64,000 nucleotides of DNA. Origin: Candidatus Moanibacter sp. (GTDB taxonomy: Bacteria; Verrucomicrobiota; Verrucomicrobiia; Opitutales; UBA2987). The notes beneath the pieces were generated by a model. It had not been told where the DNA came from. It worked only from the letters and a program-made list of their open reading frames with translations, and made no database searches. Of this stretch, positions 31,556 to 59,658 are shown in pieces. The position numbers and the translations under genes were made by a program. Positions within the stretch are counted from its first letter, which is position 1; every line of letters starts with the position of its first letter. The stretch covers positions 12,361-76,360 of the forward strand of contig CBDCEW010000084.1 of the NCBI GenBank assembly GCA_965215885.1, given 5' to 3'.

Positions 31556-31749
31556 GAAAGCGGAAGTTAAGCGAACGGGTTGAACGACACTCATAAAAAG
31601 CTGACTCCCTTCAGCCCGCCGCCGTTCCGCCGCGCGATACCTTTATCGGCTTGGATAAAACAAGCCGGCAACGGTAAATAGAGATCTCAATATCAGATTT
31701 ATGGAACGCTCAAACAAGAGTGTTCCGTATCCCGAGAGGAGGCGGGGTA

Positions 31750-32349: not shown

Positions 32350-32687
32350 GCGACCAGTCGATTTCACACCCTACGGTAAAGTCAAGCGGGAATTCGGCAG
32401 GGTTCTTCACTAGCCTGAAGATTTCACGGCTTTGGCGCAAACGGAGTTAAGAAGATGGAGACGAATTGGTAGCGAATGCGGGGAGAAACACAGCCTGTCT
32501 TCGCTCGAGATTGCGCCAAAGCTCACATCTCTTGAGGTTTGCCCGCAAGTATGCAATGCTGGCAGCATGCCCGAGCGGATATGCCACCAGGACTAGGGGC
32601 CGGTATAATTGGCTTGATCTTTATCGTACCATTTTCGGAAGTTGCTCGATTTCAGTGCATTTTTTTTGAGGATGCAAAATTGAATAA

Positions 32688-33356: not shown

Positions 33357-33398
33357 GACTGACGAAGAGGGAGATATAACGAACTGCCAGATGCCGTA

Positions 33399-36767: not shown

Positions 36768-37458
36768 GTCGCCTGAGGAAGGGTTGAGCTTTCGAGAGGA
36801 GCGGAAGTTTGTCATACCCCGTGGCGACTGTCGGGAGATTGAGGGTATGATCAGAATCTCGCCCGCGATGTTTTCTGAGAACTTTCCACCCCGATGGGTA
36901 AATAGCATCTACCTAGATACTTATGATTTTCTGAATCATACCGAACACCTTGCAGGAGTCTGCGATCGAGCCAAACATCGAGTTCGGTGGTACGGTAGTC
37001 TTCGAGGAAAAATCACGAGTCCGGTTCTTGAGGAAAAAATGCGCTTCAGCATTTTAGGAGCGAAGAGAAGGTACCGATTGCCGGAGTTTAACTTTGATGG
37101 GCGTATATCTTCTTCTATCCTCCACTCGAAACTTAGGGAAGGGGAGGTTGATCCTCGTATTTTGGAAGTTTGCCTTAAGAAGATCTTAACCATTGTTACT
37201 CGCTACCGGCGAAAGTATTTTGTATCGCGTGATGGAAGATATCGAGTAACGATCGACTGGGGGCTCGAATATTACGGAGTTCAAGCAGGTGGGTGCGGTT
37301 TTCGAAGAGGTAGAAAAGAATCCACCGTTATTGTTGAGCTTAAATATGATCCGGAATTCAGTGACGACGTGCATCGAGTAGTTTCTAAGATGCCGTTTCG
37401 AATTGTCAGGAACTCAAAATATATGAGAGGCGTCAGCTCGATTTATGGCATCGAATGA
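36760..37458 (+). CDS. VTC-domain (polyphosphate polymerase-like, CYTH fold) protein
   Basis: Motifs REERKF, VNSIYLDT, KHRVRWYG, RYRRKYF, RVTID, ELKY and SKY. ATG overlaps the CotH-like stop. Confidence 0.88.
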   Translation: MIRSPEEGLSFREERKFVIPRGDCREIEGMIRISPAMFSENFPPRWVNSIYLDTYDFLNHTEHLAGVCDRAKHRVRWYGSLRGKITSPVLEEKMRFSILGAKRRYRLPEFNFDGRISSSILHSKLREGEVDPRILEVCLKKILTIVTRYRRKYFVSRDGRYRVTIDWGLEYYGVQAGGCGFRRGRKESTVIVELKYDPEFSDDVHRVVSKMPFRIVRNSKYMRGVSSIYGIE

Positions 37459-37517
37459 ATTGGCGTTATGTTCCTAAACAATGCAATTCACAGCCACGTC
37501 TTCACCGGTGGAGAAAA

Positions 37518-38204
37518 TCAGGCTGAAGGTGGAGGTTGCCTTCCCTGGTTGCCTTCGATGATTTGAGAAATTTGCTCCACGACCTCTACAAGGGGTATTT
37601 TCGAATTGTTGATTCGTATTGCTCCCTGGGGGCAGTGGAGAGGAGCCAGATTTCGCGTGGAGTCGGTTTTGTCGCGCTCTTCGATGGGATCCCGAAGGCC
37701 TTCTTTTGAACGACGGCGGGCTCTGGTCTCTTGATCGGCTTCCAGGTAGAATTTGAAGTCCGCATCGGGAAAGACGACCGATCCGATGTCCCGGCCTTCC
37801 ATAACAATGCCGTGGAATTCGTGATTCCGGGCGAATGAGGCGAGGCTGCGCTGATAATCAAGCAAGAACTGCCTTACCTGGGGAACGGCCGAGAATTGAG
37901 AAACCTCCCGGTTTACCTGGGGGCTCCTCAACTCTTGCGAGGTGGGCGAAAATCCGGATAAGCGAATACGAGCGCTTCGACTCCGGACGACAGTATCGAT
38001 CTGTATTTTGTTTAAATCTGATCCCAACTTACCAGAGTTTTCAGAACTCAGACCTCTATTAAGGCAGAAGTAGGTGACGGCTCGATAGTGGGAACCGGTA
38101 TCGACGTAGAGCAATTTGAAGCGTTCGGCGATGAGGCGCGCAGTGGAAGACTTACCGGATGCGGCCCCTCCATCAATAGCGATGATTTTGAATTCTTCCG
38201 GCAT
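37518..38204 (-). CDS. cmk: cytidylate kinase
   Basis: Motifs IAIDGGAASGKSST, DTGSHYR and EGRDIGSVVFPDA. Confidence 0.95.
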   Translation of the reverse strand: MPEEFKIIAIDGGAASGKSSTARLIAERFKLLYVDTGSHYRAVTYFCLNRGLSSENSGKLGSDLNKIQIDTVVRSRSARIRLSGFSPTSQELRSPQVNREVSQFSAVPQVRQFLLDYQRSLASFARNHEFHGIVMEGRDIGSVVFPDADFKFYLEADQETRARRRSKEGLRDPIEERDKTDSTRNLAPLHCPQGAIRINNSKIPLVEVVEQISQIIEGNQGRQPPPSA

Positions 38205-38207
38205 TGT

Positions 38208-39566
38208 TCACGATTCGGTGTGTAGTGAGCCCAGGATGTCAAAGAATCGTGGGAAAGTCTTTGCTACGCAGTCCGGGTTCTTAATGGATAGCCAAGGATT
38301 ATCCTGGTCGAGGATATTGGCACAGCCGAGGATTGCGAAACTCATGGCTATCCGATGATCGTTGTATGTCTCGATAGTGACTCCCCGGGCTGCTCTCTCC
38401 CGAAGAGCGGAAAGGTCGGGAGTGATCAGAAGATCCTCCACTCCCTCTTCGATTCCCTGTCCGAGCCGCCGTAATTCGTGAGCGACCGATGCGAGGCGAT
38501 CAGACTCTTGCTTACGCGTGTGGCCAATTCCTCGAATATGGACCCTGCTTTCGAATAGCGGGGCAACTGCTGCCAGGGTAAGGAAAGTGTCAGAGATGGG
38601 ATTGAAGTCCAAATCGAGCAGGTCTCGACCTGAGGGCAATCTCCTGCCCCCTTCAAATCGAAAAGAAATCTCGGAAGAATCGCTCTCCACGCAAAGTCTT
38701 GTGTTTTCCCGAAGCAAACTCAGAAATTGAGAATCTCCCTGGAGAGGAACTTCACTTAAGGCGCGTATGCTGATGGTCCCCCCCGCCACGAGGGGAAGAA
38801 TGGCAAAGTAGCTGGCGGCTGTCGCATCCGGCTCAATTTCATATACTGCGCCCTCCAAATTGTAATTGCAGGGGGCCTCAATCTCAAAACCGCCATTTTC
38901 CCCGGTTACATATCTCTGGAGTCCGAATTGCTCCATCATCCGATGAGTCATTTCAACAAAGGGCTTTGATACCGTTTCGCCTCGAAGTGAAATCTGTAAG
39001 AGGTCTTTTGCGTGGGGCGCCGCCATCAGCAAAGCGGAGAGAAACTGACTGCTGGCACTTGCGTTCACTTCAATCTTACCCCCGGAGAGACCGTGAGTGT
39101 GGAGGGTGAACGGAAAGTGCCCTGTTTGGCCTTCGTATTGGATCTTTGCGCCGAGAGCTATGAGGGCGTCGAGGAGCCCTTTCATGGGACGATTTCGCAT
39201 AATGTTTTCGCCATCGAGAAAGTAAGAGCCACCTTCCCGGAGGCAGAGAAAGGCGGTCAGAAACCTCGCAGCAGTACCCGCGTTTCCGATAAAGATACGC
39301 GCGTCGGGGTTCGGAATTTTACCACCTTGACCTCTAATCCGCACTGAGTTTTCGGTGTGTTGGGCTATGACTTCATAGCCCAATGCGATGAGAGCCCGCA
39401 CCATAATCTCAGTATCTTCGCTAAAGAGGGCGTTGCGCAGGGTAACTTCATGATCGCAGAGTGCCGCCATTATAAGCGCCCGATTTGTGATACTCTTCGA
39501 ACCGGGTAATCCTACCCTTCCCGCAACGGGTCGAGTGAAGGGAAGTATGGGAAGAGGGTCTTTCAT
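38208..39566 (-). CDS. aroA: EPSP synthase
   Basis: Motifs PGSKSITNR, GNAGTAARF, SSQFLS, QESDRL and DHRIAM. Confidence 0.96.
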   Translation of the reverse strand: MKDPLPILPFTRPVAGRVGLPGSKSITNRALIMAALCDHEVTLRNALFSEDTEIMVRALIALGYEVIAQHTENSVRIRGQGGKIPNPDARIFIGNAGTAARFLTAFLCLREGGSYFLDGENIMRNRPMKGLLDALIALGAKIQYEGQTGHFPFTLHTHGLSGGKIEVNASASSQFLSALLMAAPHAKDLLQISLRGETVSKPFVEMTHRMMEQFGLQRYVTGENGGFEIEAPCNYNLEGAVYEIEPDATAASYFAILPLVAGGTISIRALSEVPLQGDSQFLSLLRENTRLCVESDSSEISFRFEGGRRLPSGRDLLDLDFNPISDTFLTLAAVAPLFESRVHIRGIGHTRKQESDRLASVAHELRRLGQGIEEGVEDLLITPDLSALRERAARGVTIETYNDHRIAMSFAILGCANILDQDNPWLSIKNPDCVAKTFPRFFDILGSLHTES

Positions 39567-39573
39567 GCCAAGC

Positions 39574-39671
39574 TAGGAATCTGTCGGACCTAGAATTCTT
39601 AACACCCCCATATCGACGAATTCATGGTGACAGATCGACATTCCGACGCAGATGAGACCGACAGATTCCTA
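39574..39671 (-). mobile_element. 98-bp MITE, copy A
   Basis: Perfect 14-bp terminal inverted repeat TAGGAATCTGTCGG with CTAG at both ends. Supplies or overlaps the tyrA TAG stop. Confidence 0.85.
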
Positions 39672-40532
39672 GCTGCCCTCCAATTTTAGCCGAAGGCGGT
39701 CGCGGAAAGCTTTGCCGTGTTCGAGGACATTGAGAATCTCAAAGACCTGACCATTTGTGATGGCGGTCTTCATGGCTTGGAGTTCATCCTCAAACCCACC
39801 GATGGCACGGACGATTTCTTCGCGATTCTGTTCGATTATGCATTTCCAGAGACTGGGGCTTGCGGCCGCAACACGCGTCGAGTCGCGCAGTCCGTCTCCC
39901 GCAAAATTGCGCCAGTTGGAGTCTTTGGAGCCAAGGTAGGTACAGAGAACGCTGGCCAAAACATGGGGTAGATGGCTGATATTGGCTACGATTTCGTCGT
40001 GCTGCTCCGGCGTCACCGTTACGACTTCCATATCGAGCGCTTTCCAGAACAGCAGTAGCGATTCAACCGCCTTTTCATCGGTGTCAACTAGAGGTGTTAC
40101 GAAACAGGCCTTCTTACGATAGAGCTCAGCATCCGCATACTGCATACCGCTCTTCTCGGAGCCGGCCATGGGATGCGACCCGACGAATGCCGCATTGCCT
40201 GGAATCAGAACATGGCAATGGCGTGTAATCAGGCTCTTAGTGCTACCGACATCGGTCACGATTGCCCCCGGTTTGACACAACCGGCGATGCGGGCCACTA
40301 TCCCTTGAACGGCTTCAACCGGTGTGCATACAACAACGATATCGGATCCTCGAACTGCCTCTTCAAGGGTCTCGGTTACAGAATCGCACCAGGGTTGTGA
40401 TGCGCATTTGAGGCGTGTTTCGGGGCGGCGCGCCCATAGAATGGTACGCTGAGAAATTTGGCGTGCTTTAACAGCCTGTGCCAGAGAGGCGCCTAGAAGG
40501 CCCGGTGCGATGATAGTGATCTGCTCAAACAT
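39669..40532 (-). CDS. tyrA: prephenate/arogenate dehydrogenase
   Basis: Motifs TDVGSTK, GSHPMAGSEKSG, HDEIVANISHLPH and RDSTRVA. Confidence 0.92.
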   Translation of the reverse strand: MFEQITIIAPGLLGASLAQAVKARQISQRTILWARRPETRLKCASQPWCDSVTETLEEAVRGSDIVVVCTPVEAVQGIVARIAGCVKPGAIVTDVGSTKSLITRHCHVLIPGNAAFVGSHPMAGSEKSGMQYADAELYRKKACFVTPLVDTDEKAVESLLLFWKALDMEVVTVTPEQHDEIVANISHLPHVLASVLCTYLGSKDSNWRNFAGDGLRDSTRVAAASPSLWKCIIEQNREEIVRAIGGFEDELQAMKTAITNGQVFEILNVLEHGKAFRDRLRLKLEGS

Positions 40533-42345
40533 CAATTTTGCTTTGATATTTCAACCGGTAAAACAGGAATGCGATAATGTAAATCAGCAGAGCGAGTTGT
40601 GCCAGGAACTGAAGCCCGAAGAGCATCGATAGATACTCGAGGCAGCCGCCCAAAACGGACCCCAGAAGGTTTGATCCGAGTGCTGAGGTGGGGTTAGCCG
40701 AACGGGAAAGGAGGATCGGGACGATAATACCGGCAAAGAAAATGGGAATAGCGATGAGAAGTCCACCGAGAATGCTTCGAGGGAGCATCTCAAAATGATT
40801 GAGTTCGCTGACCGGGAAATAGCATACCAGAACAACGGCGAAGAAGAGGCCTAAGAACCAGTATGTGGGATCTCTCAGACTGAAATGCATGACAACCAGA
40901 TTGGCCAGCAGAACCATCGTCAGGATGGCAGCAAATACGGCGGAGTTTACAATCCATGTGGATCCGAAAAGAAGGGATAAGCTGGTGATGCCACGCGTCT
41001 CCAAAAGGAGAAATGAAGTGCCCATAAGAAAGAGGGTAGAGTCAAATTCCCGGACTACGTTTTTCTTCCCAAACGCGAATACGACCAATCCCGTTCCCAG
41101 GAGCAGGATGAAGAGCAGTACCAGGAGGTAGCCCCAAGGGAAGACTCCGGGACGTATGTAAAGAAAGGGCCAATCATCACTCGTGGTTCGAACCTGGGGT
41201 ATCTCGCTCCCCGCCTCTATCGTCTGAAAGGTGTTCAGTCGGGCGTAATTGAGCTTGGCACTCTCTTTAGGGACGATGAAGGTTACACTGAAATGTTCTC
41301 TCTCGTGAAAAAGTGGTAGTGGCCGTATGCCGGTCGCCTTCGCGATTGTCGTATAAAGCCGCAAGAAAAACCACTCACCGGCATAAACGCTTATAGTAAT
41401 GCTGAGATGCCCCCTATCAGAAACCAGCTCCCAGGCGGATCGAATGCTGTCCTCGGTGTAGACGTAATTGTCAAGTCGCAACGAGGACATGGATGAAAAC
41501 ATGGCATGCGAGTCGAGGAAACCGAAACTGACGACGTCAAAGGGTTCACCCTGGTATTGTTCAAAGAAAGGTCTGGCATCGTTAACCACCGGAATTACCT
41601 CCGAATTTTGGTAAGGTTGTTCAGGGTGTAGCGATTGTCCCAATGCAATGATCTCTCCGTCGATATCTACAGAATAGATCATGGCGTAATCGTTTCGAAT
41701 TGCCGCCTGAACATCGTTTCCGGTGCCGGCTCCCACAATTAATGCCCTTCTGCGCGCATCATTTATAAAAAAGGGTAAGTCGTAGACGCGTCTTAATCCG
41801 AATGCCAAGAGGTCTTTGCTTTGAGAGAGCTCCTCCCTGGATAACGGGAGCTCGGAGAAATCATGCATGTATTGATGGAAATCCCGGTTTACCCTGATCG
41901 TGATTGCGACAGGATTGTCATGCTTAACATCGATGCGATTGTAAGGTGAGTATATTGCCCCCTGAATGGAAAAAGCGCTCAGAATTAGAATGCCGAGAAA
42001 GGCTGCAATGCTGTACCACTTTCGCGACAGCCAGCAGAACGGTAATCCCCCAATCATGAACCAGATTGGAGGGTTCGCGGAGAACGAGGTTGCGATCGTG
42101 AATGCGATTATGCCCAGGAGCGAGCCGAGCAGATCTGCCGAGTAGGCACGAAGAGTGGGAATTCTACCAAAGAGATACCCAACAGGAGTTCCAGCAAATA
42201 TAAAAACACTGACAATGAAGCAGAAGAGGCAGAGAAAAATTGCGATGTTGAGACTGAAGGTAGAGAGAGACCAAGTGTTCAGCTCCCCATAAGAAAACTG
42301 AGGTAGTCCGTCAAGGGATTTTTTGAGTTTTTTCTCATGTTGTGT

Positions 42346-43656
42346 TTACAAGGCGTTGGCATTTGCTTGCTGAAGTCTTTTCCACACCGGTGAACCGGTG
42401 CGTTGGAGCGATTGGAGATACTTTTGCTCATCGTAGCGTTCGCTATTTTGCCAACAGCGAAACAGAATGCGGGTCCACTTGAGAGCGAGGGCACGAAGAA
42501 TGGTTTGGCGGGGTTTGCCCTGTTCTTTTTTGATCTGGTAAAAGGCCTTTGCCCAGGCACAGTTTCGGATCGAATGTTCGGCAAATTCAACGAAACTTTG
42601 CCGCACGAAGGTAGGAGCCGCCCACCGCCAGTTGACCATTCGTTTCGGTTGTCCGGTTCTTTTGTCCTGCCCGCTGTTGATCGTGACCGGAGCGGATCCA
42701 TTCCACTGGGTCATGTTCTGGGCCGTTTCGAAGTGCGAACGATCGGTCCCGAACGCGCACAGCAACCGGGGACTCATGACCTCGCCGGCTCCGGGAATGC
42801 CACTGAACACGGCTGCATCGGGATGGCTTCTGAATAGCTCCCTGATACGCTTCTCATACGCTTTGATCTGCGGGCACAGGGTCAAAAGCTGTCCGGCCAA
42901 CGTCTGTGCTTTTCTGCTGGATGCTTCAATGATGGCTGCATCTTCGGTCAAGGCTCGTGCGTTACCGATCAATTCGAGACGCTCCTGGATTTTGGCGTCA
43001 CTGCGACAGTTGTGCTTATAGAAGAACTTTCGCAAGACACCCTCCGATGCTCTGTGCAGCTTCTTGAGGGTCGGCCAACGCAATATAAAGTGCAGGCACA
43101 GGCCACTGCCTAGATCATCGAACAATTTCAAGACCAAAGGGTTATATTGCTTCAGACAACTGCCCAACTGCTGTTCGAGGCTGGTAGCCTGATCGACGAA
43201 TCCACGGCGGTCCTCGCACAACAGGTTCAGCTCCCGTGTTTGGGCCGTGTCAGGTATGAAACATTTGGTAAAAAGCTCGGGATGTTTGAGGAAAAACTCC
43301 GCGTGTATTTGCGCATCGACCGGGTCGCTCTTGGCCCCTGATGGATACAGCGCCCGGCGATAATCCTTCGCCCTGGCCGCATGCACTGGATAGATATCGA
43401 CAAACTCCAAGCCCATCAGAAAGTTGATCAACCCTCCTCGCTTCTGGTCCACCACCATGGCCATGCGCTTGCCCACGCTGGCATACTTTTCTCTCATCTC
43501 TACGGCAAATTCGTGCAAGCTGACCGCATCCTGCGCCACCTGTCGATGGGTCCCTTTTCCCGTTTCGCTCTCTATGATCCACAGATCGTTTTTCTGATCC
43601 GCCCAATCAATTCCTATCACCACACTATATCGATTTGTTTTTTCCCTTTTCTGCAT
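42346..43656 (-). CDS. IS110 DEDD recombinase/transposase
   Basis: Motifs VIGIDWA, KSDPVDA, GIPGAG and APVTINSG; 436 aa, intact. Confidence 0.93.
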   Translation of the reverse strand: MQKREKTNRYSVVIGIDWADQKNDLWIIESETGKGTHRQVAQDAVSLHEFAVEMREKYASVGKRMAMVVDQKRGGLINFLMGLEFVDIYPVHAARAKDYRRALYPSGAKSDPVDAQIHAEFFLKHPELFTKCFIPDTAQTRELNLLCEDRRGFVDQATSLEQQLGSCLKQYNPLVLKLFDDLGSGLCLHFILRWPTLKKLHRASEGVLRKFFYKHNCRSDAKIQERLELIGNARALTEDAAIIEASSRKAQTLAGQLLTLCPQIKAYEKRIRELFRSHPDAAVFSGIPGAGEVMSPRLLCAFGTDRSHFETAQNMTQWNGSAPVTINSGQDKRTGQPKRMVNWRWAAPTFVRQSFVEFAEHSIRNCAWAKAFYQIKKEQGKPRQTILRALALKWTRILFRCWQNSERYDEQKYLQSLQRTGSPVWKRLQQANANAL

Positions 43657-43699
43657 CCCTTTGTTCCTTTAGTTTGTCTTTTTGCTTTTTTCAAAGGCA

Positions 43700-43985
43700 C
43701 TGGATGTCCAGGCGAAGTCCTTATAGTTGGATCCTGTTATGAGGATGTAAACTGAGTGTTCGTTTTCGGTCATCCAGGCAGGCCGTCCACTCGAAATTCT
43801 GTCGGAAGTCCTCTTCGGACTGATTCCTAAGTTCGTAGTGGACGGCTGCCTTTGAATATTTTCACCCTTAGCCAAACAAACTCTTTGACCCATCGCCAAC
43901 CACTGATCGGCCAAGTTATTCACAAAGGGGCCTCGCCGAGTTTTTCCTGCGGCTCCACTCGGTCCCTTGGATGAATAACCTGGAG
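43700..43985 (-). ncRNA. predicted IS110 bridge RNA (5' hairpin, target-binding loop, donor-binding loop)
   Basis: Two stem-enclosed internal loops, each closed by CGAA/UUCG. Guides match the MITE terminal repeat (43798-43806, 43822-43831) and the circle junction (43720-43727, 43747-43756). Transcript ends are estimates. Confidence 0.8.
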
Positions 43986-44453
43986 CTACTATAAGTAAAC
44001 TGAGGTGTCTGGAAACTTGAGGTGCACCAGTCCAAATTTCTGGGAAAATGCAAAAGGGATGCCGACCAAGAATAGAGAAGGGAGAGTAAGATGCACGAGC
44101 CCGCTAAATCGTTTTCCCAACGCGACTCCAATCCCCATTCCCAGAAAAGCGCCGATTAATACAATGTTGTTGAAGTAGGCGAATATCCTGATCTGGGTTG
44201 TGCTCCAGCGGATTATTGCCAGCTCAAGGGCTAATATTCCGAAGGTCGCCAATCCAATTTTGAAAGCGACTGGTCCGCCTTTCTCAGCCCACCCCGTCTC
44301 CTTTAGCAGGTTCAAGCGCATTTTGAGAGCGAGAGTTCTCTTCTCGTAGAAAAACCTTTACCCTTCATCAGCTGTAGGAGTAAACTGGGAGTGAATCTTC
44401 TCTAGGTGCCTGTCGGCGAAGTGAGAAAGTCTCTTAGGATCGTTTGTAGATTC

Positions 44454-44573
44454 ATGAAAAATCAGCCTGACGGTAAAGAGAGCGCGAGAGCACGCCGACA
44501 TTTAATGATCTTATACGGATTTATGGCCCTGTTTATTGGGCTCCCATTCGTCCTCTTTTTCATCTTCCTCTAA
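44454..44573 (+). CDS. 39-aa single-TM small protein
   Basis: MKNQPDGKESARARRHLMILYGFMALFIGLPFVLFFIFL*; below the ORF-track size cutoff. Confidence 0.55.
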   Translation: MKNQPDGKESARARRHLMILYGFMALFIGLPFVLFFIFL

Positions 44574-44696
44574 CCGGGAGTGTTACTTATTAATAAAAAA
44601 ACCCCGTGGTTAAATATTAAGCCTGGCGTTCTCGGATTCATTATTTTTTGAGATTAGTTTAATGATCAGGTTCAGTCAGTTTCCGGAAGTGTAGTC

Positions 44697-45707
44697 ATGA
44701 CCAAGACTATCTTAATAATCCGGGTGTTCTTTTTTATGCTCTGCATTTTCGGGAGTTGGTTGGTCTGGTACTCCAATAAGGACTGGGAACAGTATCTTTG
44801 GCTTAACCTGTTTATGGGCGCGAGTCTGGGAGCCTTCGTCATCCTCGTCGATATCTTTCTAAAAGGTTTTTCTTTGAGGGGGTTAACGGCGCTAACCTTT
44901 GGATTGTTTGTCGGGTGGCTTATCGCCTACTTTATTTCGGAGTCGCCTCTTTTTGAAAGTGGGGAGCCCCAAACTCTATTTATGGTCCGGTTGGCCCTTT
45001 TTGTGATCATGATGTATCTCGGGGCCGTTATCGCCTTGAGAGGGCGCGACGAGTTTAATCTGGTTATCCCGTATATCCGATTTGTCCCCCACGGGGTTGA
45101 TGTGCCTTTAGTGGTGGTCGACACAAGCGCCCTTATCGATGGGCGCATTTACGGTATTTGTGCGACCAAGTTTATGGGATACGCTCTCGTAATTCCACGA
45201 TTTGTCCTCGACGAGTTGCAAGCTATCGCGGATTCGCCTGATCCTCAACGCCAGGCCAGAGGCCGTAAAGGTCTTGAAGTCTTAAATGAGTTAAACCAGG
45301 TCGTGAACCTTGATATTCGCATCCACGAGAGCGATCTGAGCAGCCACCAGAATGTCGATTCCAAGATTATCTTTCTGGCCGAGTCACTCAAAGCAAAGAT
45401 TATCTCGACAGACTTTAACCTGGCGCAGATGGCGGAGTTTCAGGGTGTCGAATGGTTGAATATCAATGCCTTGGCGAAAGCATTGAATCCGGAACTGATC
45501 ATCGGTGAGACGTTGGAGGTGGAACTCGTCAAAACCGGCAAAGAGGCCGGACAGGCGTTGGGTTTCTTGAACGACGGATCGATGGTCGTAGTAAACGATG
45601 GTAAGAAATTCCTCGGGAGAAAGGTGCGCATCGAAGTCCAGAGCGTTCTCCCGTCGGCGGGAGGTAAGATGGTGTTTGCCAAGATTCTCGAACCTATCGG
45701 GGACTAG
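44697..45707 (+). CDS. PIN/TRAM domain membrane protein (YacL-like)
   Basis: N-terminal TMs; PIN motifs VDTSALIDGRI, ELQAIADS and TDFNL; TRAM motif GFLNDGSMVVV. Confidence 0.92.
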   Translation: MTKTILIIRVFFFMLCIFGSWLVWYSNKDWEQYLWLNLFMGASLGAFVILVDIFLKGFSLRGLTALTFGLFVGWLIAYFISESPLFESGEPQTLFMVRLALFVIMMYLGAVIALRGRDEFNLVIPYIRFVPHGVDVPLVVVDTSALIDGRIYGICATKFMGYALVIPRFVLDELQAIADSPDPQRQARGRKGLEVLNELNQVVNLDIRIHESDLSSHQNVDSKIIFLAESLKAKIISTDFNLAQMAEFQGVEWLNINALAKALNPELIIGETLEVELVKTGKEAGQALGFLNDGSMVVVNDGKKFLGRKVRIEVQSVLPSAGGKMVFAKILEPIGD

Positions 45708-45955
45708 CAGCCTTATAGTCGGACTTTTATGTCTCTTTCGGAAGCATTTCCCTTTATTTTCCGGAAAATTATCCGAAGATATAAGAAACTTATGAGGTGT
45801 GATATAACTTTTGATGTCAAAATTTGCATAAAAAGGCGTCTATACCGGTTTTTTTTCTTGGCAAAGAATGAAAAGTACGCTTATCTGGGAGGCCCCCTAT
45901 AATTGGGGGACTATATCTTGAATCAGAAACATATAAAAATAGAGGAGAATATAAT

Positions 45956-46303
45956 ATGAATTATAAGACTACGAAAAAAGGGTTTACCCTTGTGGAAATC
46001 ATGATCGTGGTAGTCATTATCGGGCTACTGGCGGCAATGGCAATTCCGGCCTTCAACAAAGTTCGAGCTACCTCACAGGATAAGGCAGTAACGAATAACT
46101 TGCGGCAATTTGCCTCCGCAGCTCAGCAGTATATGTTGGACGAGGGGGTAGCGAGTGTTTCGTCGACGAATATTGTGGGCGTTGGGTTGCATATCAGCGT
46201 TCTTGACCAGGTTGCGGATGAGACCTATGTGCTGACGGTGGCAACCAATACGACTCGAATATCTACTACTGTAAATACTCGCACGATCAATTACGATTTC
46301 TAA
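45956..46303 (+). CDS. short type IV pilin
   Basis: Class III signal [25 protein letters not shown]; strong RBS GAGGAG; own terminator. Confidence 0.92.
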
Positions 46304-46322
46304 TTAGATTCGAGCATTTTCG

Positions 46323-46359
46323 GGCCGCCTTCTTCTGTTGAGGAAGGCGGCCTTTTTTT
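46323..46359 (+). terminator. intrinsic terminator after the pilin
   Basis: GGCCGCCTTC / GAAGGCGGCC stem followed by T7. Confidence 0.85.
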
Positions 46360-46493
46360 GTTCGGCTTTGCCGGAGCCCGCATTCCCTCATTGGGTAAGC
46401 TTTAGGGACTGCCGGCAGCCGCAATTCGACCGATACGCGACTGCGGAATTGATGAGAAAAGCGAGCTAAGGCATCGTGTAAACAAGCTGGAAG

Positions 46494-48434
46494 ATGCGTC
46501 TTCGTCTATTACTGCTCGTATTTAACACGGTACTTGCGTTGGGCTTCAGTTGTGTGCTGGTGGATCCGTTGTGGGCGGAACTGATGATCGTGTATGGGGG
46601 CTACCCCATTATATTTGTAACTTTCCTGATATTCGTTTGGTCGCTGGCAAGGTTGTTTCAGGGGGAAGTCCGAAGTGTCCGATTTTCGCGAAACAGTGTC
46701 GTCTTTCTGGTAACGATTGTGGGTTCCTCTTCGCTACTGCTGTTACACGAGCCTTTCGATTTTAAAATTGTCATGGATGAACTGGTGCTTCTTGGCATTT
46801 CCATGAAGATGCACTTTGAGAAGATCGTTGCGGTAGCAGTCAGATCAAATGACTACTTTGGAAGTTTTGAGCTAATTGGGGGATATCTGGACAAACGTCC
46901 TTTTTTTCATCCCTTCCTCCTCTCTTTGGTGCATACACTTACAGGGTATAGACCGGAGAACGCATTTGTTCTGAACGGGGCGCTGACCTTTGTGCTTCTC
47001 GTCCTGGTCTATTCATACGGGCGGAAGCTCGTTGATGCATCTGTTGGAATCCTGGCGGTGCTTTTGATTGCGAGCGTGCCCTTAGTCGGACAGAATGCGA
47101 CGGGCGGACATTTTGAGATATTGAACCTCGTCATGATCGTCGCAGCGATGCTGTTATCTTGTCGGTATTTGGAGCAACCTGATGAGCGCTCTCTTGCTTC
47201 ACTCTGCTATTGCGGACTGCTCTTGGCCCAGACGCGATATGAGTCGGTCGTATTCGTATTATCGATCGGCGCGGTTGTGCTGATAGGTTGGGTCAGAGCA
47301 GGGAAACCGATTCTCTCGTGGCCAACCGTGTTCGCGCCTTTGTTGCTGGTTGGATATCCCCTTCATTTTCGAGTGACGATGTCGAGGCCCGACTTTTCCC
47401 AGCTCGCTGGTAAGGGACTTGAAAATGCATTCAGCCTGGAGTACGTGGGATACAATCTCGTGCGTGCCGTTAATTACCTGTTTCACATGGGACAGGTCCT
47501 CTCCAATTCAATATTTCTGTCTCTCTTGGGAGTAATCGGCCTTATCATTTTTCTTGGATTTGTCTGCTGGCGATGGCGAGAGGTATGGGAGAAGAAAACC
47601 GCGCATCTTGTGCTCTTTATTTTCACGGTCGGAGTTATGCTTTCTTTTGCACTGACAATGGGTTATCACTGGGGGCAATATGACGATCCTATAGCCAGTC
47701 GTTTTAGCCTGTCTTTGGCACTTGTTTTTGTGTTTGTTTGCCCCGTTGCGCTGAGAATTGTGCCGGGACCGTACCTTCTTTCAGTACTGGTCTTGTTCGG
47801 TTACAATATCTGGTTTTTCATTTGGGATCTCGAACCTCTCGAAGTTGTAACGATGGGCGTGAGGCTGATTCTCGTCTTCATTATCGCCTGCGCGCTGACC
47901 TTGATTTGGCTGCTCAAAGGTAAGAATATGGTGAATTTCATGATAGCGGCCACCTTGGTGTTCATCGTTTTTATGACCATTCCCGTCCTCGCCAATCATC
48001 GCTACTCCCAGATTTCGACGCCCGCCACTGAAGTGCGGATGATGCGGGAATTTTTTAAGGAGAATCCAAGGAGAGATTACTTCTTTACCTCCAGGAGCGC
48101 TTTAGTGGCGAGCACGCATCTCGTCTCTTCGGCGACGATACGCAAGGTTCGCGAGAATCCCGAGACGATCGCCGAGCATATTCTGCACCGAAACTACAAT
48201 GCGATATATGCCTTTCAGCTGGTCGATGTCCATCCGGATACCGGGGAGCTTCATATCGTCGATAAATACGATCTTGGCCCTCGATTCGTTTACGAAACGG
48301 TAATCGAACGCAGGCTGGTACCCTTACAGCTCGCGCGCATCGTGCGTATCGTCGCTGTGAAATCGCCGGAAGAGGGTGGCGAGAACACACTCGAAGCCGA
48401 TTCGGAATCTTCCCAGTCAGCGGCGCTGGAATGA
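46494..48434 (+). CDS. multi-pass GT-C-type glycosyltransferase-like protein
   Basis: DE in the first loop; LDKRPFFHPFL and GYRPEN motifs; many TMs; paralog of 59659..61497. Confidence 0.72.
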   Translation: MRLRLLLLVFNTVLALGFSCVLVDPLWAELMIVYGGYPIIFVTFLIFVWSLARLFQGEVRSVRFSRNSVVFLVTIVGSSSLLLLHEPFDFKIVMDELVLLGISMKMHFEKIVAVAVRSNDYFGSFELIGGYLDKRPFFHPFLLSLVHTLTGYRPENAFVLNGALTFVLLVLVYSYGRKLVDASVGILAVLLIASVPLVGQNATGGHFEILNLVMIVAAMLLSCRYLEQPDERSLASLCYCGLLLAQTRYESVVFVLSIGAVVLIGWVRAGKPILSWPTVFAPLLLVGYPLHFRVTMSRPDFSQLAGKGLENAFSLEYVGYNLVRAVNYLFHMGQVLSNSIFLSLLGVIGLIIFLGFVCWRWREVWEKKTAHLVLFIFTVGVMLSFALTMGYHWGQYDDPIASRFSLSLALVFVFVCPVALRIVPGPYLLSVLVLFGYNIWFFIWDLEPLEVVTMGVRLILVFIIACALTLIWLLKGKNMVNFMIAATLVFIVFMTIPVLANHRYSQISTPATEVRMMREFFKENPRRDYFFTSRSALVASTHLVSSATIRKVRENPETIAEHILHRNYNAIYAFQLVDVHPDTGELHIVDKYDLGPRFVYETVIERRLVPLQLARIVRIVAVKSPEEGGENTLEADSESSQSAALE

Positions 48435-48695
48435 ATTTCAAAAAGACACAGTTTTTCTGTACAGCGATACTCGGCGGGTCAGCCTTTGTCTCGAAGAAGA
48501 CGGATTTCTCTCTTCCTCTCAGCTCGAATTGGCGTGAGAATTTTTCCTCTTGGGTGTCGAAGTTTCCAGCTTCAACTTTATTATGATCAGGAGTTATGAT
48601 TATCGGACGATCTTTCTTCTCTTCACCCTACCCTACCTCTTTGATATGGCGAAAGTTCCGGAGGCAGCCAAATCGCTTCTAAGGAATTCTTCCCG

Positions 48696-49985
48696 ATGGA
48701 AAGAGCAGGTGTGAATCATAGAAGGATACAATTTGTCTGTATGGCGCTGTTGGTTGGCAGCCTCCTGTTTTATGTCACTCTGTATCCTCCCGCCTGGAGG
48801 CTTTTCATTGGCCCATATTACATGGGGTATCCATTTCTGGATCTGCATGGCGTCCTCTCCTATGCCGAAGGGTATAATCGGGGTTGGAACTTAAGGACAT
48901 TGGAGTCCAACCCCTTGGACTTTTTGAAAAGGGGAAATACGGCATATCCCAATCTGTGGTATTCTCTCCCCGGAGCGTTAGGATTTACGCGTCAACATGA
49001 AATCCCTTTGGCTCTTATGATTGTCGTGGGATTTCTCTCCTTCCTCCTCTTTTTTCTCTACCCCCGTTCGTGGAAGGATGTCTTAATCGGTTTTCTTGTT
49101 ATTTGCTCACCGGGAGCACTCCTGGCAATGGAGCGTGGCAATAACGATCTCGTGATTTTTTTGTTGCTCGCCATCGTCCCGCTCTGCTTCGAGTGGCGGT
49201 CGCGTGTGGGATTTCCATTGGCGTGGACAGTGCTGCTGTTTGCCACAGCCCTCAAGTACTATCCGATTACCGGATATATTCTCTTTGTGAGGAATATAAA
49301 GCAGCTGCGCCTACTGTTTTGGTATGCATTTGCGGCCTTCTTCGCGGTTTCGGCCTATTTCGCAGTCAATGTGGAGGATTTTCTTCAGGTTCCCCGGAAT
49401 CTTCGGGCCTACACAGATCCCATCGACGTTTTCACTTTCGGAGCAAAGGGCTTCTTTTATTTTATCAGTTATGACAGAGAATACCTTGGAGTCTCCGTCC
49501 TTCTCGGCTTTCTGGCTATCTTGGGTGGGGCCGCCTTTTTCGCGAAAAAGACCGATTCTTCACTTCTACCGAGCTCTCAATGGCGTGAGAATTATTTCCT
49601 CTTGGGTGTCGCTATCTCGGCTTTCGCATTTTTTTTGATCAGCAGTTACGATTATCGGACCATTTTTCTTCTCTTTACGTTCCCTTACCTCCTTGAATTG
49701 GGAAAAGACTCAGGGGAAGCCAATCGTCTCAGGATAGCGGCGCGGGTTCTCACAGCGCTTCTGATTATCGTGATGTGGATCGAAACGGTCTACTTTTTTG
49801 TGGTCTTAGACCCGGTTCAACGCCAGTGGCATGCGGTAGGGGTCGGGTACGTGGTACTCATCAAGCACGGTTTGGCGTGGATTGTGATGGCAATGCTGGT
49901 AGGGTTGGCTTTCCTGCTTCTGAAGCCGAGTGTAGCGAGACTTTGGGCATCTCTTCCACCATTGATAAAAGAGAAATCGGGATAG
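48696..49985 (+). CDS. GT87-like membrane glycosyltransferase
   Basis: Motifs FLDL, AYP, ERGNNDLVIF, LKYYP and YDYR. Confidence 0.72.
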   Translation: MERAGVNHRRIQFVCMALLVGSLLFYVTLYPPAWRLFIGPYYMGYPFLDLHGVLSYAEGYNRGWNLRTLESNPLDFLKRGNTAYPNLWYSLPGALGFTRQHEIPLALMIVVGFLSFLLFFLYPRSWKDVLIGFLVICSPGALLAMERGNNDLVIFLLLAIVPLCFEWRSRVGFPLAWTVLLFATALKYYPITGYILFVRNIKQLRLLFWYAFAAFFAVSAYFAVNVEDFLQVPRNLRAYTDPIDVFTFGAKGFFYFISYDREYLGVSVLLGFLAILGGAAFFAKKTDSSLLPSSQWRENYFLLGVAISAFAFFLISSYDYRTIFLLFTFPYLLELGKDSGEANRLRIAARVLTALLIIVMWIETVYFFVVLDPVQRQWHAVGVGYVVLIKHGLAWIVMAMLVGLAFLLLKPSVARLWASLPPLIKEKSG

Positions 49986-50080
49986 GAATCTGTCGGCCGA
50001 ATCCGCGTCGGAATGTCGATCTGTCACCATAAAATCCGCTTCCCGGTGATGTTGGGAATTCTAAGTCCGACAGATTCCTA
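49983..50080 (+). mobile_element. 98-bp MITE, copy B
   Basis: Same 14-bp terminal repeat and length as copy A, with shared internal GCGTCGGAATGTCGATCTGTCACCAT. Begins at the upstream TAG stop. Confidence 0.85.
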
Positions 50081-50157
50081 ACCTGTGAATTTCACCGAGA
50101 TTTCCGGATCAATGGGAGGCAGCGCACGAAACTCATCGTGAGTAAAAGGAAGGTAGC

Positions 50158-51000
50158 GTGTCATCTGATAAAGAGTATACCTCGCCGTTAGACAAAGCGT
50201 GGTTTTGTCTGTGCAAAGAAGCGTATAACGTAATGGTGACTTCGCTTGGCCTTTGCCTGATATACTGCTACTTGCTCTGGCTTCCCTATGCCTCCTTTCT
50301 TTTGCAAAGCGGTGCTTACAGTGAGGTGCCAAAACAGTATGGATTTTCAGTTTTCGAACTCTCTCCATGGAAGTATTGGGGACACGCGCTTCTAGTTATT
50401 GGATGTCTATCGGGAGTTGCCCTTGTCTTTAGGCGATACGTAAGGATCTTCCTTTGCATTCACCTGATGATTTTCTCGGGACTGATCGTATCGGTCCCCT
50501 TTTCTTTGAGTGCGGATCATAAGATCGCTTGCGTTCTGATGTTGTGGCTCCTGCTGCTTCCAACCGGATTCGATGCCCGGGGCTACTATACCGGCCTCGC
50601 CGTTTTTGGTCTCAGGTTTCAGCTCGGGCTCATTTATTTCTGTGGCACTCTCTATAAACTGTTCGATCCGTCTTGGGTGACCGGAAATGCCCTCTTAGTA
50701 GGGCTACTTAACATGGTATCCGCCTCTTCGCTCGGTCTCGCATTCGGGCTACATGTGCCACCCTACATACACGGGATTTTAACCTATCTGTCGTTGGCGG
50801 TCGAAATGCTGGCCCTTCCGTTAATTCTCATTCCCGTTGGATCCAGTTGGATTCGGCGAGCTCTCTTCTGCACGCTGGGCCTCTTCCATTTGGGGACATT
50901 CTTTCTCTTCGATCTGGGGATGTTTCCCTTCATCATGATTACTTATCTTTTCTCTCTTCTTGAAACCGATGATTTCAGAATCTTTCAAAGAAAGACTTAG
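50158..51000 (+). CDS. HTTM-domain-like membrane protein
   Basis: Motifs QLGLIYF...YKL...WVTGNAL and LFHLG...LGMFPFIM. Confidence 0.62.
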   Translation: MSSDKEYTSPLDKAWFCLCKEAYNVMVTSLGLCLIYCYLLWLPYASFLLQSGAYSEVPKQYGFSVFELSPWKYWGHALLVIGCLSGVALVFRRYVRIFLCIHLMIFSGLIVSVPFSLSADHKIACVLMLWLLLLPTGFDARGYYTGLAVFGLRFQLGLIYFCGTLYKLFDPSWVTGNALLVGLLNMVSASSLGLAFGLHVPPYIHGILTYLSLAVEMLALPLILIPVGSSWIRRALFCTLGLFHLGTFFLFDLGMFPFIMITYLFSLLETDDFRIFQRKT

Positions 51001-51658
51001 CGCCTGCCTCAAATCGCCCGCTGACAGTCTACGCCAAGGGGGCGCTGCGCTACTGCTTATTCTCACAGTTTACGCAGCATCTGTGGAGACTCTTCTGCAG
51101 CCACTCGGGTGGGAGATGGAGATTCTAAATCCCGTTGTGCGCCCATTGTCACAGCTTCTCGGCTTTAATCAGAATTGGGCGATGTTTACGCGTGGAAAAA
51201 TTGAACCGCTGGCTACCGATGAATTGAGGTTGGATTCCGCCAGGCTTCGCCTCATGACAGCATTTGTGGTGGACGATAAAGGAGAGTTACGCGACCCCTT
51301 TACCTTTGAAATTGTAAGTTTCTCAGAGGCTTTCCAACACTACGTAGATAGTCCTCGATTTATTCGTGCCTTATTGTTCGAAGTCGACGATCGTCATGAG
51401 GAGGGTCGACTGAATACGGTCTTAACCGTCGCGAATGCTGTCGCCGCAGGTTTTAAGAGAAGAATCGGTGAGGTGAAAGAGGTCGTCTACTACACCTATC
51501 GGTATGATCTACCCGTTGATGGGGAAGAGGCGTTATTCGAACATTTTTATGAAATGCCGGTGATACTGAGAGAGTGGGGACGCGTACGATTTGTTCAAGG
51601 AAAGCCGGTGGAATTGACAAAGGCGTGGGGGGAGGCGGCAGAATGGAGAGAGATTTAG
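50969..51658 (+). CDS. membrane-anchored hypothetical protein (QNWAMF motif; HTTM partner or C-terminal half)
   Basis: Overlaps both neighbours; LLGFNQNWAMF motif. Confidence 0.55.
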   Translation: MISESFKERLSACLKSPADSLRQGGAALLLILTVYAASVETLLQPLGWEMEILNPVVRPLSQLLGFNQNWAMFTRGKIEPLATDELRLDSARLRLMTAFVVDDKGELRDPFTFEIVSFSEAFQHYVDSPRFIRALLFEVDDRHEEGRLNTVLTVANAVAAGFKRRIGEVKEVVYYTYRYDLPVDGEEALFEHFYEMPVILREWGRVRFVQGKPVELTKAWGEAAEWREI

Positions 51659-53121
51659 TCGGGAAATCTCATCGTTTTCAGGCCGGACAGGCCGACTTCG
51701 TTTCTCACGTGAATTACAAGGAACATTTTGACTGTGTCGCGGAAAATGACACCCGCCCCCGCTGGTATCAGAGGCACTTCCACCGGCAGATCCAACGGAT
51801 TCTGGGGCACCATATTCCGGAGGGGAAGCGAGTTGTCGAATGGGGTTGCGGTGGGGGAAGCCTTTTGGCTTCGCTGCGACCCAGTCACGGGTTGGGATTG
51901 GACCTCAGTCCAAAGATGATAGAGAAGGCGAGGAATCGTTTTCAGGAACCCGGCCTCCAATTTCGCGTTGGAGATCTCAGCCGCGAAGTCCTGGATGAAG
52001 AGTTCGACGACATCGTATTAGATTATCTACTCGGTTATGTGGAAGATATACAAAAATGCCTCGAGAATTTGCACGCTTCCTCGGGAGCGCGCACGCGCCT
52101 TTATATCACATCGCTCAACACTATCTGGAAACCGATTCTACGCCTCGGGCAAATTGTCGGCGCCGTGGTGAGGCAGCCCCCGAGCAATTGGCTCTCGCTG
52201 GACGATCTCATAAACCTTGTCGAACTCTCCGGCTGGGAAGTCGTCACAACGTCATCGGAACAGCTCTTTCATTTTGATGTACCCCTCGTAACGGGCCTTT
52301 TTAACCGCTTCCTCGTTCGCCTGCCTTTTCTCCGTCATTTTGGGACGACGCTTCTGATCGTAGCGCGACCTCAGAAAGTGCCGGAGCTTAGCGGTGAGAT
52401 AAGTTGCTCGGTGATCGTGCCGGTGCGCAACGAAGCGGGAAACATTCGGCCTGCCCTCGAACGTGTGCCGACACTTGGAAAGCGAACCGAGATCATCTTT
52501 GTGGAAGGCAACAGCAGCGATGATACCTGGGAGGTCGTTCAGAGGGAGACCGGCGAATACAGTGGCCCACACCAGGTCTCCTGTTGCCGTCAACCGGGAA
52601 AGGGAAAATGGGACGCCGTATTCACGGGATTCTCCAAGGCAAAAGGAGATGTGCTGGTGATTCAAGACGGTGATCTAACGGCTCCACCGGAGGATCTCCC
52701 GAAATTTTTCGAAGCCGTTATTCAGGGCAAAGCGGAGTTTGCCAATGGAAGCCGCCTTGTCTATCCGATGGAAGATAAAGCGATGCGGTTTCTGAATTTG
52801 ATTGGTAACAAGTTTTTCGCCCTGGCACTTTCCTTTGTCATCCGCCAGCCCATCAAAGACAGTCTATGCGGCACCAAGATGCTTCTTCGCTCCGATTATG
52901 AGTCGCTCCTGAAGCGCATGGAGGAATTCGGCGACTTTGACCCATTCGGTGATTTCAATCTTCTCTTCGGTTCTTCCTTACTCGACCTGAAGATCCGTGA
53001 TATCCCCGTGCGTTACAGAGATCGTAGCTATGGTGAGACTAACATTTCGCGGTTTCGACACGGTTGGATCCTGTTAAAGATGACCTGGTTCGGTTTGAGG
53101 AAACTGCGCTTCCACGGCTAG
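51643..53121 (+). CDS. class I SAM methyltransferase-like / GT2 (DPM-synthase-like) fusion
   Basis: Motifs EWGCGGG and GLDLS; VIVPVRNEAGNI, QDGDL, DSLCGTK and DPFGDF. Confidence 0.88.
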   Translation: MERDLVGKSHRFQAGQADFVSHVNYKEHFDCVAENDTRPRWYQRHFHRQIQRILGHHIPEGKRVVEWGCGGGSLLASLRPSHGLGLDLSPKMIEKARNRFQEPGLQFRVGDLSREVLDEEFDDIVLDYLLGYVEDIQKCLENLHASSGARTRLYITSLNTIWKPILRLGQIVGAVVRQPPSNWLSLDDLINLVELSGWEVVTTSSEQLFHFDVPLVTGLFNRFLVRLPFLRHFGTTLLIVARPQKVPELSGEISCSVIVPVRNEAGNIRPALERVPTLGKRTEIIFVEGNSSDDTWEVVQRETGEYSGPHQVSCCRQPGKGKWDAVFTGFSKAKGDVLVIQDGDLTAPPEDLPKFFEAVIQGKAEFANGSRLVYPMEDKAMRFLNLIGNKFFALALSFVIRQPIKDSLCGTKMLLRSDYESLLKRMEEFGDFDPFGDFNLLFGSSLLDLKIRDIPVRYRDRSYGETNISRFRHGWILLKMTWFGLRKLRFHG

Positions 53122-57660: not shown

Positions 57661-57692
57661 TGTTTCTGGCCCGTGAATTGAAGCAAAGCAAG

Positions 57693-59607: not shown

Positions 59608-59658
59608 CAAGCTAGGCCGGAAATCACAGACCTTCATCAATTCGTCTTCATCGTATCT

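Follow-up and report, generated by a model that had tools for sequence, protein, structure and literature searches.

A putative bridge RNA directing an IS110-group element to the tip of a MITE-like repeat in Candidatus Moanibacter

Does the leader of an insertion sequence (IS) state, in readable form, where the element will land? The question is raised by a locus in a 64,000-nucleotide stretch of Candidatus Moanibacter sp. (Verrucomicrobiota; GenBank assembly GCA_965215885.1, contig CBDCEW010000084.1, positions 12,361 to 76,360), hereafter the window, the positions of which are counted from its first letter on the forward strand. On the minus strand of this window, a stem-loop at 43777..43850 precedes the gene of an IS110-family recombinase, and the original prediction, made from the letters alone, held that the internal loop of this structure is a guide programmed against the terminal repeat of a MITE (a miniature transposable element with inverted repeats) resident nearby. 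We find that the span 43995..42292 (minus strand) is, in all likelihood, an IS110-group insertion sequence, active-looking and moved by recombination under the guidance of a bridge RNA. That such an element is guide-programmed to a MITE tip is largely supported, on the basis of the flanks of its copies and of a joint change of guide and target in a related genome. The copy in the window itself turned out to be the exception, and its position calls for an explanation of its own.

Guides and target sites of the element

The boundaries of the element were set by comparing the flanks of its copies. In the window's own genome (G000; 6.36 Mb in 105 contigs, 90.3% complete, 5.47% contamination), the search returned 13 matches, namely ten full-length copies, one partial copy at the start of the window's own contig (C84) and two fragments. 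The ten full-length copies correspond to the window span at 100% identity as reported. All of them have CT at both ends, and this core dinucleotide is the only shared feature of the two termini, which read CTTATAG... and ...CAGTTTTCT and are not inverted repeats.

The stem, internal loop and small hairpin described at 43777..43850 are present in the sequence as stated: the minus strand from 43850 to 43777 reads GGCAGCCGTCCACTACGAA / CTTAGGAATCA / GTCC-GAAGA-GGAC / TTCCGACAGAAT / TTCGAGTGGACGGCCTGCC. The left guide, TTAGGAATC, is in the sense of the target's top strand, while the right guide, TTCCGACAGAAT, is complementary to the core and GTCGGA; together they spell (T)TAGGAAT-CT-GTCGGA. The decisive comparison is with the DNA around the other copies, which the original prediction expected to rebuild its target. 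In nine of the ten, the flanks read ...[C/T]AGGAAT | CT TATAGTAGC...CTCAGTTTT CT | GTCGG[A/T]..., and the left guide UUAGGAAUC matches the yAGGAAT-C of the left flank. These nine copies rebuild an empty site of yAGGAAT-CT-GTCGGw, the very sequence spelled by loop 1.

The same sequence stands unoccupied in the window. The composite 16-mer, TTAGGAATCTGTCGGA, is found exactly at 50066..50081 (minus strand) and its 15-mer exactly at 39574..39588, both as originally located; the full 16-mer at 39573..39588 (plus strand) has a single mismatch, in its first base. At two mismatches or fewer the window holds six matches against 0.02 expected, a count that none of 100 shuffles reached; the guide loop accounts for one of the six. 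The target (yTAGGAAT-CT-GTCGGA) is the outermost 15-16 bp of an inverted-repeat, MITE-like element of about 100 bp. The earlier description of the hits as the ends of 98-bp MITEs was right about the tips and wrong about the length, the repeats being 100 bp long.

A natural change of guide is provided by G006, one of 40 related genomes, which belongs to the same family but to another genus and contains 25 matches at about 79% protein identity. Sixteen full copies were examined out of 18 loci fetched (the other two are without the first 78 nt), and they share 80.4-80.7% DNA identity with the window element over all 1,704 bp. In these copies the left guide region reads CTTAGGAGGCA, as opposed to CTTAGGAATCA in the window element, and the left target guide is UUAGGAGGC, as opposed to UUAGGAAUC, which places AGGAGG where the window element has AGGAAT. 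The small hairpin of loop 1 carries a compensatory change, from GTCC/GGAC in the window to GTCG/CGAC. The predicted covariation of guide and target is seen here, the two differing together: all 16 copies lie in CTAGGAG[T/G]-CT[IS]CT-GT[C/T]GGAC, with AGGAGT in 15 and AGGAGG in one on the left, and GTCGGAC in 15 and GTTGGAC in one on the right. The genome has 924 AGGARKCTGTCGG sites, 237 of which are AGGAGT; among the first 50 listed, 32 are AGGAAT, 14 AGGAGT, two AGGAGG and two AGGAAG. None of the 16 copies occupies the commoner AGGAAT tips, and since every one of them is in AGGAG[T/G], the G006 element is confined to tips that have G at position 6, in accordance with its guide. Tips of the AGGAGT and AGGAAT types recur in G006 about 244 bp apart on the same strand (for example at C1:170227/170470, 375307/375551 and 438386/438630), a spacing that hints at a longer composite repeat with a single tip of the type used by the element.

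The repeat itself is abundant in G000. Its tip motif, GGAATCTGTC, was counted 167 times on the plus and 162 times on the minus strand, most often with the nearest inverted partner 90-99 bp away (46 cases). Inverted tip pairs 75-110 bp apart number 52, mostly with 94 bp between the motif ends, and repeats of 200-290 bp carry the same tips. We call the repeat MITE-like because the flanking dinucleotides are TA/TA in only 13 of the 52 pairs, because one end usually has extra conserved sequence (TCTTCAAA or CTAGAAA), and because six longer tip pairs that were inspected enclose no multicopy unit or evident transposase, their open reading frames (ORFs) not having been scanned against a family library. 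Besides the occupied sites, 256 further AGGAATCTGTCGG sites (13-mers) in G000 are unoccupied, the majority of them arranged as inverted pairs at a distance of 90-99 bp. The base at target position -7 shows no significant preference, with T in six and C in three occupied sites (n=9) and T in 164, A in 47, C in 25 and G in 20 unoccupied ones (n=256).

An abundant IS of 1.9 kb was considered as the autonomous parent of the repeat and rejected, as its ends differ from the MITE tips. In the window this IS spans 57691-59615, with an ORF at 57915..59585 (minus strand) for a 556-aa transposase of the DDE_Tnp_1 type (PF01609, 9.8e-09), and it has well over 100 near-identical copies in the genome. A miniature palindromic repeat at 26057-26093 of the window consists of two MITE-type tips a few bases apart, with two mismatches to the 16-mer; tip pairs 30-39 bp apart occur six times genome-wide.

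The two-loop RNA, its ends and its relatives

Coordinates of the features discussed here and below are collected in Table 1.

Table 1. Positions in the window of the element, its predicted guide RNA, the neighbouring target repeats and the interrupted gene.
Feature	Position	Strand	Remarks
Complete IS110-family element	42292..43995	-	1,704 bp with both terminal CT cores counted (1,702 bp and a duplicated CT)
Recombinase gene, 436 aa	42346..43656	-	DEDD/RuvC-like domain and Tnp domain
Predicted two-loop bridge RNA core	43701..43850	-	150 nt, in the 5' (left) non-coding end of the element
Predicted target-binding stem-loop (loop 1)	43850..43777	-	
Predicted donor-binding stem-loop (loop 2)	43776..43701	-	Directly after loop 1, similar design
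Predicted 5' stem-loop of the leader RNA	43912..43982	-	Upstream of both guide loops; in minimum-free-energy and centroid folds
Left target guide UUAGGAAUC	43822..43830	-	Reads as target top strand: left arm and core C
Right target guide UUCCGACAGAAU	43796..43807	-	Reverse complement ATT-CT-GTCGGAA
Left donor guide CACUCAGUUUAC	43747..43758	-	
Right donor guide CCAACUAUAAGGAC	43717..43730	-	Reverse complement GTC-CT-TATAGT-TGG
Putative -10 hexamer TATAGT	43988..43993	-	Left end
Putative -35 hexamer TTGACG	42309..42314	-	Right end
Unoccupied MITE-like repeat, 100 bp	39573..39672	.	Target sequence at both inverted tips
Unoccupied MITE-like repeat, 100 bp	49982..50081	opposite orientation	Tip 50066..50081 is the exact 16-mer
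Interrupted gene, 5' piece	43996..44321	-	Left flank ...CACCTCAGTTTA
Interrupted gene, 3' piece	40525..42291	-	Right flank TATGGGGAGC...; 2-nt loss in (TC)n run 42262..42270

The second loop of the RNA reads the element's own termini. The left donor guide agrees with the element's right end, CTCAGTTTT-C, at 9/10 positions, with the mismatch adjoining the core, and the right donor guide matches the core and the first six nucleotides of the left end, CT-TATAGT, at 8/8 positions. Since both sides match the joined ends of the element, loop 2 is taken as the donor loop. The same CGAA/UUCG closes loop 1 and loop 2. When the ends are joined computationally they give TTGACG-17 nt-TATAGT, a putative promoter, and transcription starting about 7 nt after the -10 hexamer, as predicted, would begin at the foot of the 5' stem-loop. 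The arrangement TTGAC(G)...CT is also present at the right ends of four more distant relatives (L045, L044, L047 and L057).

The folding energies are consistent with a structured RNA. Using RNAfold, the 339-nt leader has a minimum free energy (MFE) of -114.2 kcal/mol (z -4.09, none of 100 shuffles as good) and the 150-nt core one of -57.7 kcal/mol (z -6.19, none of 200 shuffles as good), and the loop-1 stem of the original prediction is present in both folds. An Rfam scan of 38000..52000 at E <= 1 matched no family to the region of the element and its bridge RNA. The only match in that scan was a sub-threshold one to BcKCsr2 at 46286..46358 on the plus strand (24.6 bits against a gathering score of 40, E 0.043), which is essentially a GC-rich hairpin followed by a U run, terminator-like and downstream of the ORF at 45956..46303.

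The 436-aa ORF starts 121 nt downstream of the loop-1 structure. In Pfam, its N-terminal part is a DEDD (RuvC-like) domain (PF01548, E 1.2e-17, profile positions 1-155 of 155 covered) and its C-terminal part a Tnp domain (PF02371, E 2.3e-09). Matches in the Protein Data Bank (PDB) are weak; ISCro4 (9t56) and IS621 (8wt6) are found at a marginal E of about 1e-4 and over the C-terminal domain only, with the SG motif included, such that ...TINSGQD of the window protein aligns with ...RRYESGSS of ISCro4. Across eight relatives, D17, D111, D114 and G329 are invariant and S328 is kept in seven; by analogy with S241 of IS621, the catalytic serine would be at the S328 position. The second acidic residue of the DEDD set is D70 (window 43449-43451) here and in G006, and E in the other six relatives (alignment A4). 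One relative, L049, has Asn in the presumed catalytic Ser column.

Part or all of the stretch is represented in 20 sequencing runs from nine studies. In two metatranscriptome runs of a single study, contigs cover 43707-43940 and 43701-43995 at word depths of 21.5 and 13.7, about 2-5 times the depth of the ORF contigs in the same runs (about 3-18). These leader contigs end at 43701/43707, where the donor stem-loop is predicted to have its 3' end. Parts of the ORF are without cover in the RNA runs, and contigs cannot show absence.

More distant relatives provide further evidence for both the structure and its reading. In a sample of 401 genomes of the phylum, 12 (G000 included) had a match at E <= 1e-50, with 32-44% identity, and a protein-query search for related loci found none in genome contigs and one 42%-identical locus in metagenome contigs. 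A covariance model of the 150-nt core (R1) matched six of 11 relatives' loci at E <= 0.0012 and three more at E 0.016-0.093; all nine matches lie just upstream of the recombinase gene. The two loci with no R1 match, L052 and L053, have protein matches that begin at residues 120-128, and their elements are apparently without the 5' part. In an alignment of nine sequences (A3, E <= 0.002, which drops the weaker matches L046, L048 and L049), 94.7% of cells are paired, as compared with 26-46% when the partners are slid. Changes on both sides occur in 33 of 39 pairs, and none of 500 shuffles reached the observed values. An earlier alignment, A2, was discarded because it contained antisense matches of the model.

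In seven of these relatives, with 31-43% protein identity where aligned, the guides were read by hand against the flanks, and each loop 1 matches the flanks of its own element. The left flank with core, followed by the right arm, is CTCGTG-CT and TCGTA in L045, GCCCC-CT and TTGCG in L044, TAGCCGGGG..-CT and TCAGC in L051, GA[C]CCG-CT and GT in L054, ACTTGA-CT and GGTT in L047, and CTCGTC-CT and CGAAC in L057; in L050 the left side is GATAC-CT and the right end falls outside the locus. L057, from a metagenome contig, has the same CGAACTCGTCCT on both flanks (L057:30-50 and 1676-1690), and it seems to target a direct repeat in tandem. Loop 1 differs from element to element, and loop 2 keeps CUC... 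and mostly CUAUAAG, which is found in seven of the nine aligned sequences and in L057, the variants of L051 and L054 matching their own left ends. This pattern agrees with the published account, as far as consulted, of a poorly conserved first loop and a much better conserved second one (PMC11208160). The left donor guides of L045, L044, L051 and L047 need a one-base bulge or are out of register beside the core.

A finer feature of the guides is also shared. In IS621, once strands have been exchanged, positions 6-7 of the other DNA are paired by two bases located 3' of those that bind the core (PMC11208158, in the part consulted). In the window element such a handshake guide is presumably the AA that stands last before the final U in the right target guide. 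Read by hand, the loop-1 handshake base complements donor position 7 in 8/8 elements, as A:T in seven and as C:G in L047, and position 6 is complemented in 6/8; the loop-2 handshake base complements target position 7 in 8/9 elements, through A:T, C:G, G:C and U:A. This complementarity is why the right target guide, when reverse-complemented, agrees with the right junction, TT-CT-GTCGGA, over 10 contiguous nucleotides that comprise donor positions 6-7, the core and the right target arm. It supports the view that the clade of the window element works like IS621.

By analogy with IS621, we envisage that the element would excise as a circle, whose junction would form the TTGACG-17-TATAGT promoter and so drive the RNA. 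A recombinase tetramer would then hold both DNAs, with the target bound to loop 1 and the donor to loop 2, and cleavage at the CT core by the DEDD and Ser sites would be followed by strand exchange. The handshake dinucleotides 3' of the core-binding bases may assist, through base pairs to the incoming strand.

The copy in the window and the alternatives

The window copy is the one of the ten that is not in a MITE. It interrupts a membrane methyltransferase-like gene, the named homologues of which are class I S-adenosylmethionine (SAM)-dependent methyltransferases or spermidine-synthase-like proteins. Its flanks read ...CACCTCAGTTTA | CT...CT | TATGGGGAGC..., and removal of the element and one CT yields ...PDTSVYLWGAEHLVSL..., exactly the sequence in an intact 698-aa orthologue, P0001 (98% identity). 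This orthologue came from a protein database; a search for the gene in 20 relatives found only the two G000 copies. In addition, a contig from run X3 joins 42288 to 43991 and skips 1,702 bases, i.e. 1,704 - 2, as expected of an empty site. The original prediction also held that guides and target can both be read from this one locus. That is so for the guides; the target cannot be read from the flanks of this copy, only from the unoccupied MITEs nearby. Compared with what P0001 calls for, the (TC)n run at 42262-42270 lacks 2 nt, and the frame shifts there, about 25 nt beyond the IS on its downstream side; the loss is either a second lesion or an assembly or sequencing error.

The interrupted site looks like a donor rather than a target. 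Its left flank, CTCAGTTTA-C, matches the left donor guide at 10/10 positions, better than the true right end of the element does (9/10), and only two CTCAGTTTACT sites exist in the 6.36 Mb. We consider it probable, on this comparison of guides and flanks, that the copy arose by donor-loop-guided insertion at CTCAGTTTA-CT-TATGGG. The most likely cause would be a 'half-match' event guided by the donor-binding loop (DBL), or recombination of the DBL-DBL type. Random or unguided insertion at a CT, or a rearrangement between IS copies, is unlikely but has to be weighed seriously, because the event is single and allows no statistics across events, and because two features of the site weigh against guidance by the donor loop. 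The right arm matches the donor guide only partially (TAT, then 1/3 of the next bases), and the copy sits where an inverted duplication of about 11.5 kb ends, in a draft assembly that is rich in repeats and has the contamination given above, which makes a history of rearrangement possible. On the other hand, both flanks come from one gene and, with a single CT, restore the reading of the orthologue; this speaks for a simple insertion over a chimera formed from two IS copies, which would be flanked by what look like MITE halves. By chance, a left arm that agrees with the donor guide over 9 nt next to CT would arise about once in 4^9 random CT sites, there are only 20 CTCAGTTT[AT]CT sites genome-wide, IS right ends included, and the site matches the target guides at only about 2/7 positions on the left and 2/5 on the right. 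These facts favour donor-loop guidance.

The duplication pairs C84:1-15348 with C84:43679-55142 (window 31319-42782) at 99.6-99.8% identity. The former segment overlaps window 1-2988, begins inside the IS110 copy at the contig start and has two extra copies of the 1.9-kb IS. The duplication could be a real IS-bounded event or an artefact of strains or assembly; the assembly may have collapsed or folded strain variants at this place.

Two other explanations concern the RNA itself. One would have the recombinase protein read the MITE tip directly, with the likeness of loop 1 being incidental or the remnant of a captured MITE. The stretch 43815..43830 in loop 1 does itself resemble a MITE tip, with two mismatches, and the need for an RNA is deduced here from sequence. 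However, a captured fragment does not explain a right guide that is the reverse complement of the target, and direct reading by the protein sits badly with guide and target differing together between G000 and G006, with loop 1 matching, in each of the seven distant elements, the flanks of that element, which are unrelated, and with the covarying stems; we regard this explanation as very improbable. The hairpin at 43850..43777 could instead be a cis-regulatory element of the recombinase mRNA, an attenuator or a translational control, and not a guide acting in trans, since the recombinase gene has it in its 5' leader, in the same orientation. Such a role would leave unexplained why the internal loops predict the flanks of 9/10 and 16/16 copies and why loop 2 matches the ends of the element. 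A leader role and a guide role can, moreover, coexist, and as a replacement for the guide this proposal has as little to recommend it as direct protein recognition.

Several observations weigh against bridge-RNA guidance and have to be set beside the above. The evidence is inference from sequence throughout. In the free RNA, the guides were expected to be unpaired; RNAfold reproduces the stem, and its MFE structure weakly pairs the two sides of loop 1 through five guide nucleotides of each (C20-G52, U21-A51, G24-C47, G25-C46 and A26-U45). This self-pairing arises because GGAA stands on both sides of the target, and we do not take it as a refutation, since the evidence from the flanks decides the matter. 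The alignment used for covariation had been fitted to the model, a procedure that favours structure, and has nine sequences only. The G006 guide has a G adjoining the core where 15 of the 16 targets have T, an imperfect pairing at position 7 that the element apparently tolerates. In the window element, the loop-2 handshake base forms a G.T wobble and no Watson-Crick pair with the MITE target. No circle junction (back-joint) was seen in contigs of four runs, which cannot show absence, and the junction motif is absent from the genome assembly. The hint of expression is weak, as contigs cannot show RNA ends or levels and DNA is possible in such libraries, and the empty-site contig of run X3 gives modest support, its short side being 27 letters at a depth of 2.

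Relation to known systems and biological meaning

The bridge RNA of IS621, an IS110-group element of E. coli, has been described (PMC11208160), as have its handshake guides (PMC11208158), and the comparison below holds for the parts of these sources that were consulted. The parallel that the original prediction drew to IS621 extends to each of its points, i.e. a target loop followed by a donor loop, a CT core and the targeting of a repeat (PMC11208160). In addition, the two elements share a recombinase with DEDD and Tnp domains, a left-end RNA made of a 5' stem-loop, target loop and donor loop, left guides in top-strand sense with complementary right guides, a multicopy genomic repeat as target, and the handshake pattern. 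The split of a promoter across the joined ends corresponds to the native right end-left end (RE-LE) promoter of IS621, and the mismatch beside the core in the left donor (LD) arm falls at LD position 7, which is mismatch-tolerant in IS621 (both PMC11208160). All testable defining features of an IS110-group bridge system appear to be present in the window element. The differences are also clear. Protein similarity is very low (phmmer against PDB, E 1.7e-4, C-terminal domain only), and the window protein has 436 aa as compared with 328 aa in the PDB chain of IS621, i.e. about 100 aa more. The leader is about 340 nt long. Furthermore, the right target guide covers the core plus 6 nt instead of 4 nt, the second acidic residue is D and not E, and the target is the tip of a MITE-like inverted repeat and not a repetitive extragenic palindrome (REP).

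Settling in repeats is typical of the IS110 family as a whole. IS4321 and IS5075 target the terminal repeats of transposons, and IS1111 belongs to another subgroup, whose guide RNA lies downstream of the gene. In Coxiella burnetii, 20 of 21 IS1111 copies are in QMITE2 (PMC5896051, Wachter et al. 2018), so that this IS110-family member, too, has a MITE family as its preferred landing site. Unlike the window element, IS1111 targets a GTAG REP inside the MITE and not the terminal inverted repeat, and the consulted part of that paper, which predates guide RNAs, has no guide-target reading (PMC5896051). The copies of ISPpu9 and ISPpu10 in Pseudomonas putida all lie in one conserved intergenic repeat (PMC12288879; 10.64898/2026.03.19.712850) and resemble the present case in being concentrated in a single repeat family; as described in the consulted parts of these sources, they are directed to REPs, and a stem-loop contributes further to specificity. 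With regard to the window copy, off-target insertions of the LD-only, right-donor (RD)-only and LD+RD types have been reported for IS621 (Xie et al., bioRxiv 10.64898/2026.08.31.748434). Like those half-match events, the window insertion is at a site that matches the donor loop (LD arm and core) and not the target loop. The preprint, in the part consulted, concerns in vitro and plasmid-insertion data from E. coli, whereas the present example is a single, fixed, natural and gene-inactivating insertion whose mechanism we infer. A literature search on IS110, MITE and terminal inverted repeat found no paper describing this particular pairing. The mechanism and the targeting of MITEs or REPs by the IS110 family are already published, and no new principle is involved; the added value is in the natural retuning of guide and target and in the donor-like off-target copy.

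Taken jointly, that an IS110 element tracks a MITE family of its host by retuning a single guide base and that its donor loop is a hidden targeting module in the wild is a tentative proposal, somewhat more easily doubted than believed as a whole. If it is true, two phenomena so far shown mainly in E. coli experiments appear in natural genomes. The MITE and the bridge element would make up a parasite system of two levels, in which a single base is discriminated at position 6 and position 7 is tolerant. The donor loop would yield gene-disrupting insertions at donor-like sites, the window copy being a fixed example of a DBL-guided half-match.

The locus is in any case accompanied by a natural data set on bridge recombination, consisting of 10 + 16 copies with flanks, hundreds of unoccupied targets, a sister element and a donor-like off-target insertion. 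It adds a distant, long-form (436-aa) bridge recombinase with a natural target specified by about 16 bp, and its right guide is longer than that of IS621, a feature that improves specificity in the IS621 system. The handshake-guide rule extends to a clade far from IS621, and a half-match off-target event in the wild would be relevant to the design of bridge editors. In terms of genome biology, one mobile element would be using another, the MITE-like repeat, as a safe place to insert, and now and then a gene would be knocked out when the donor loop sends the element astray.

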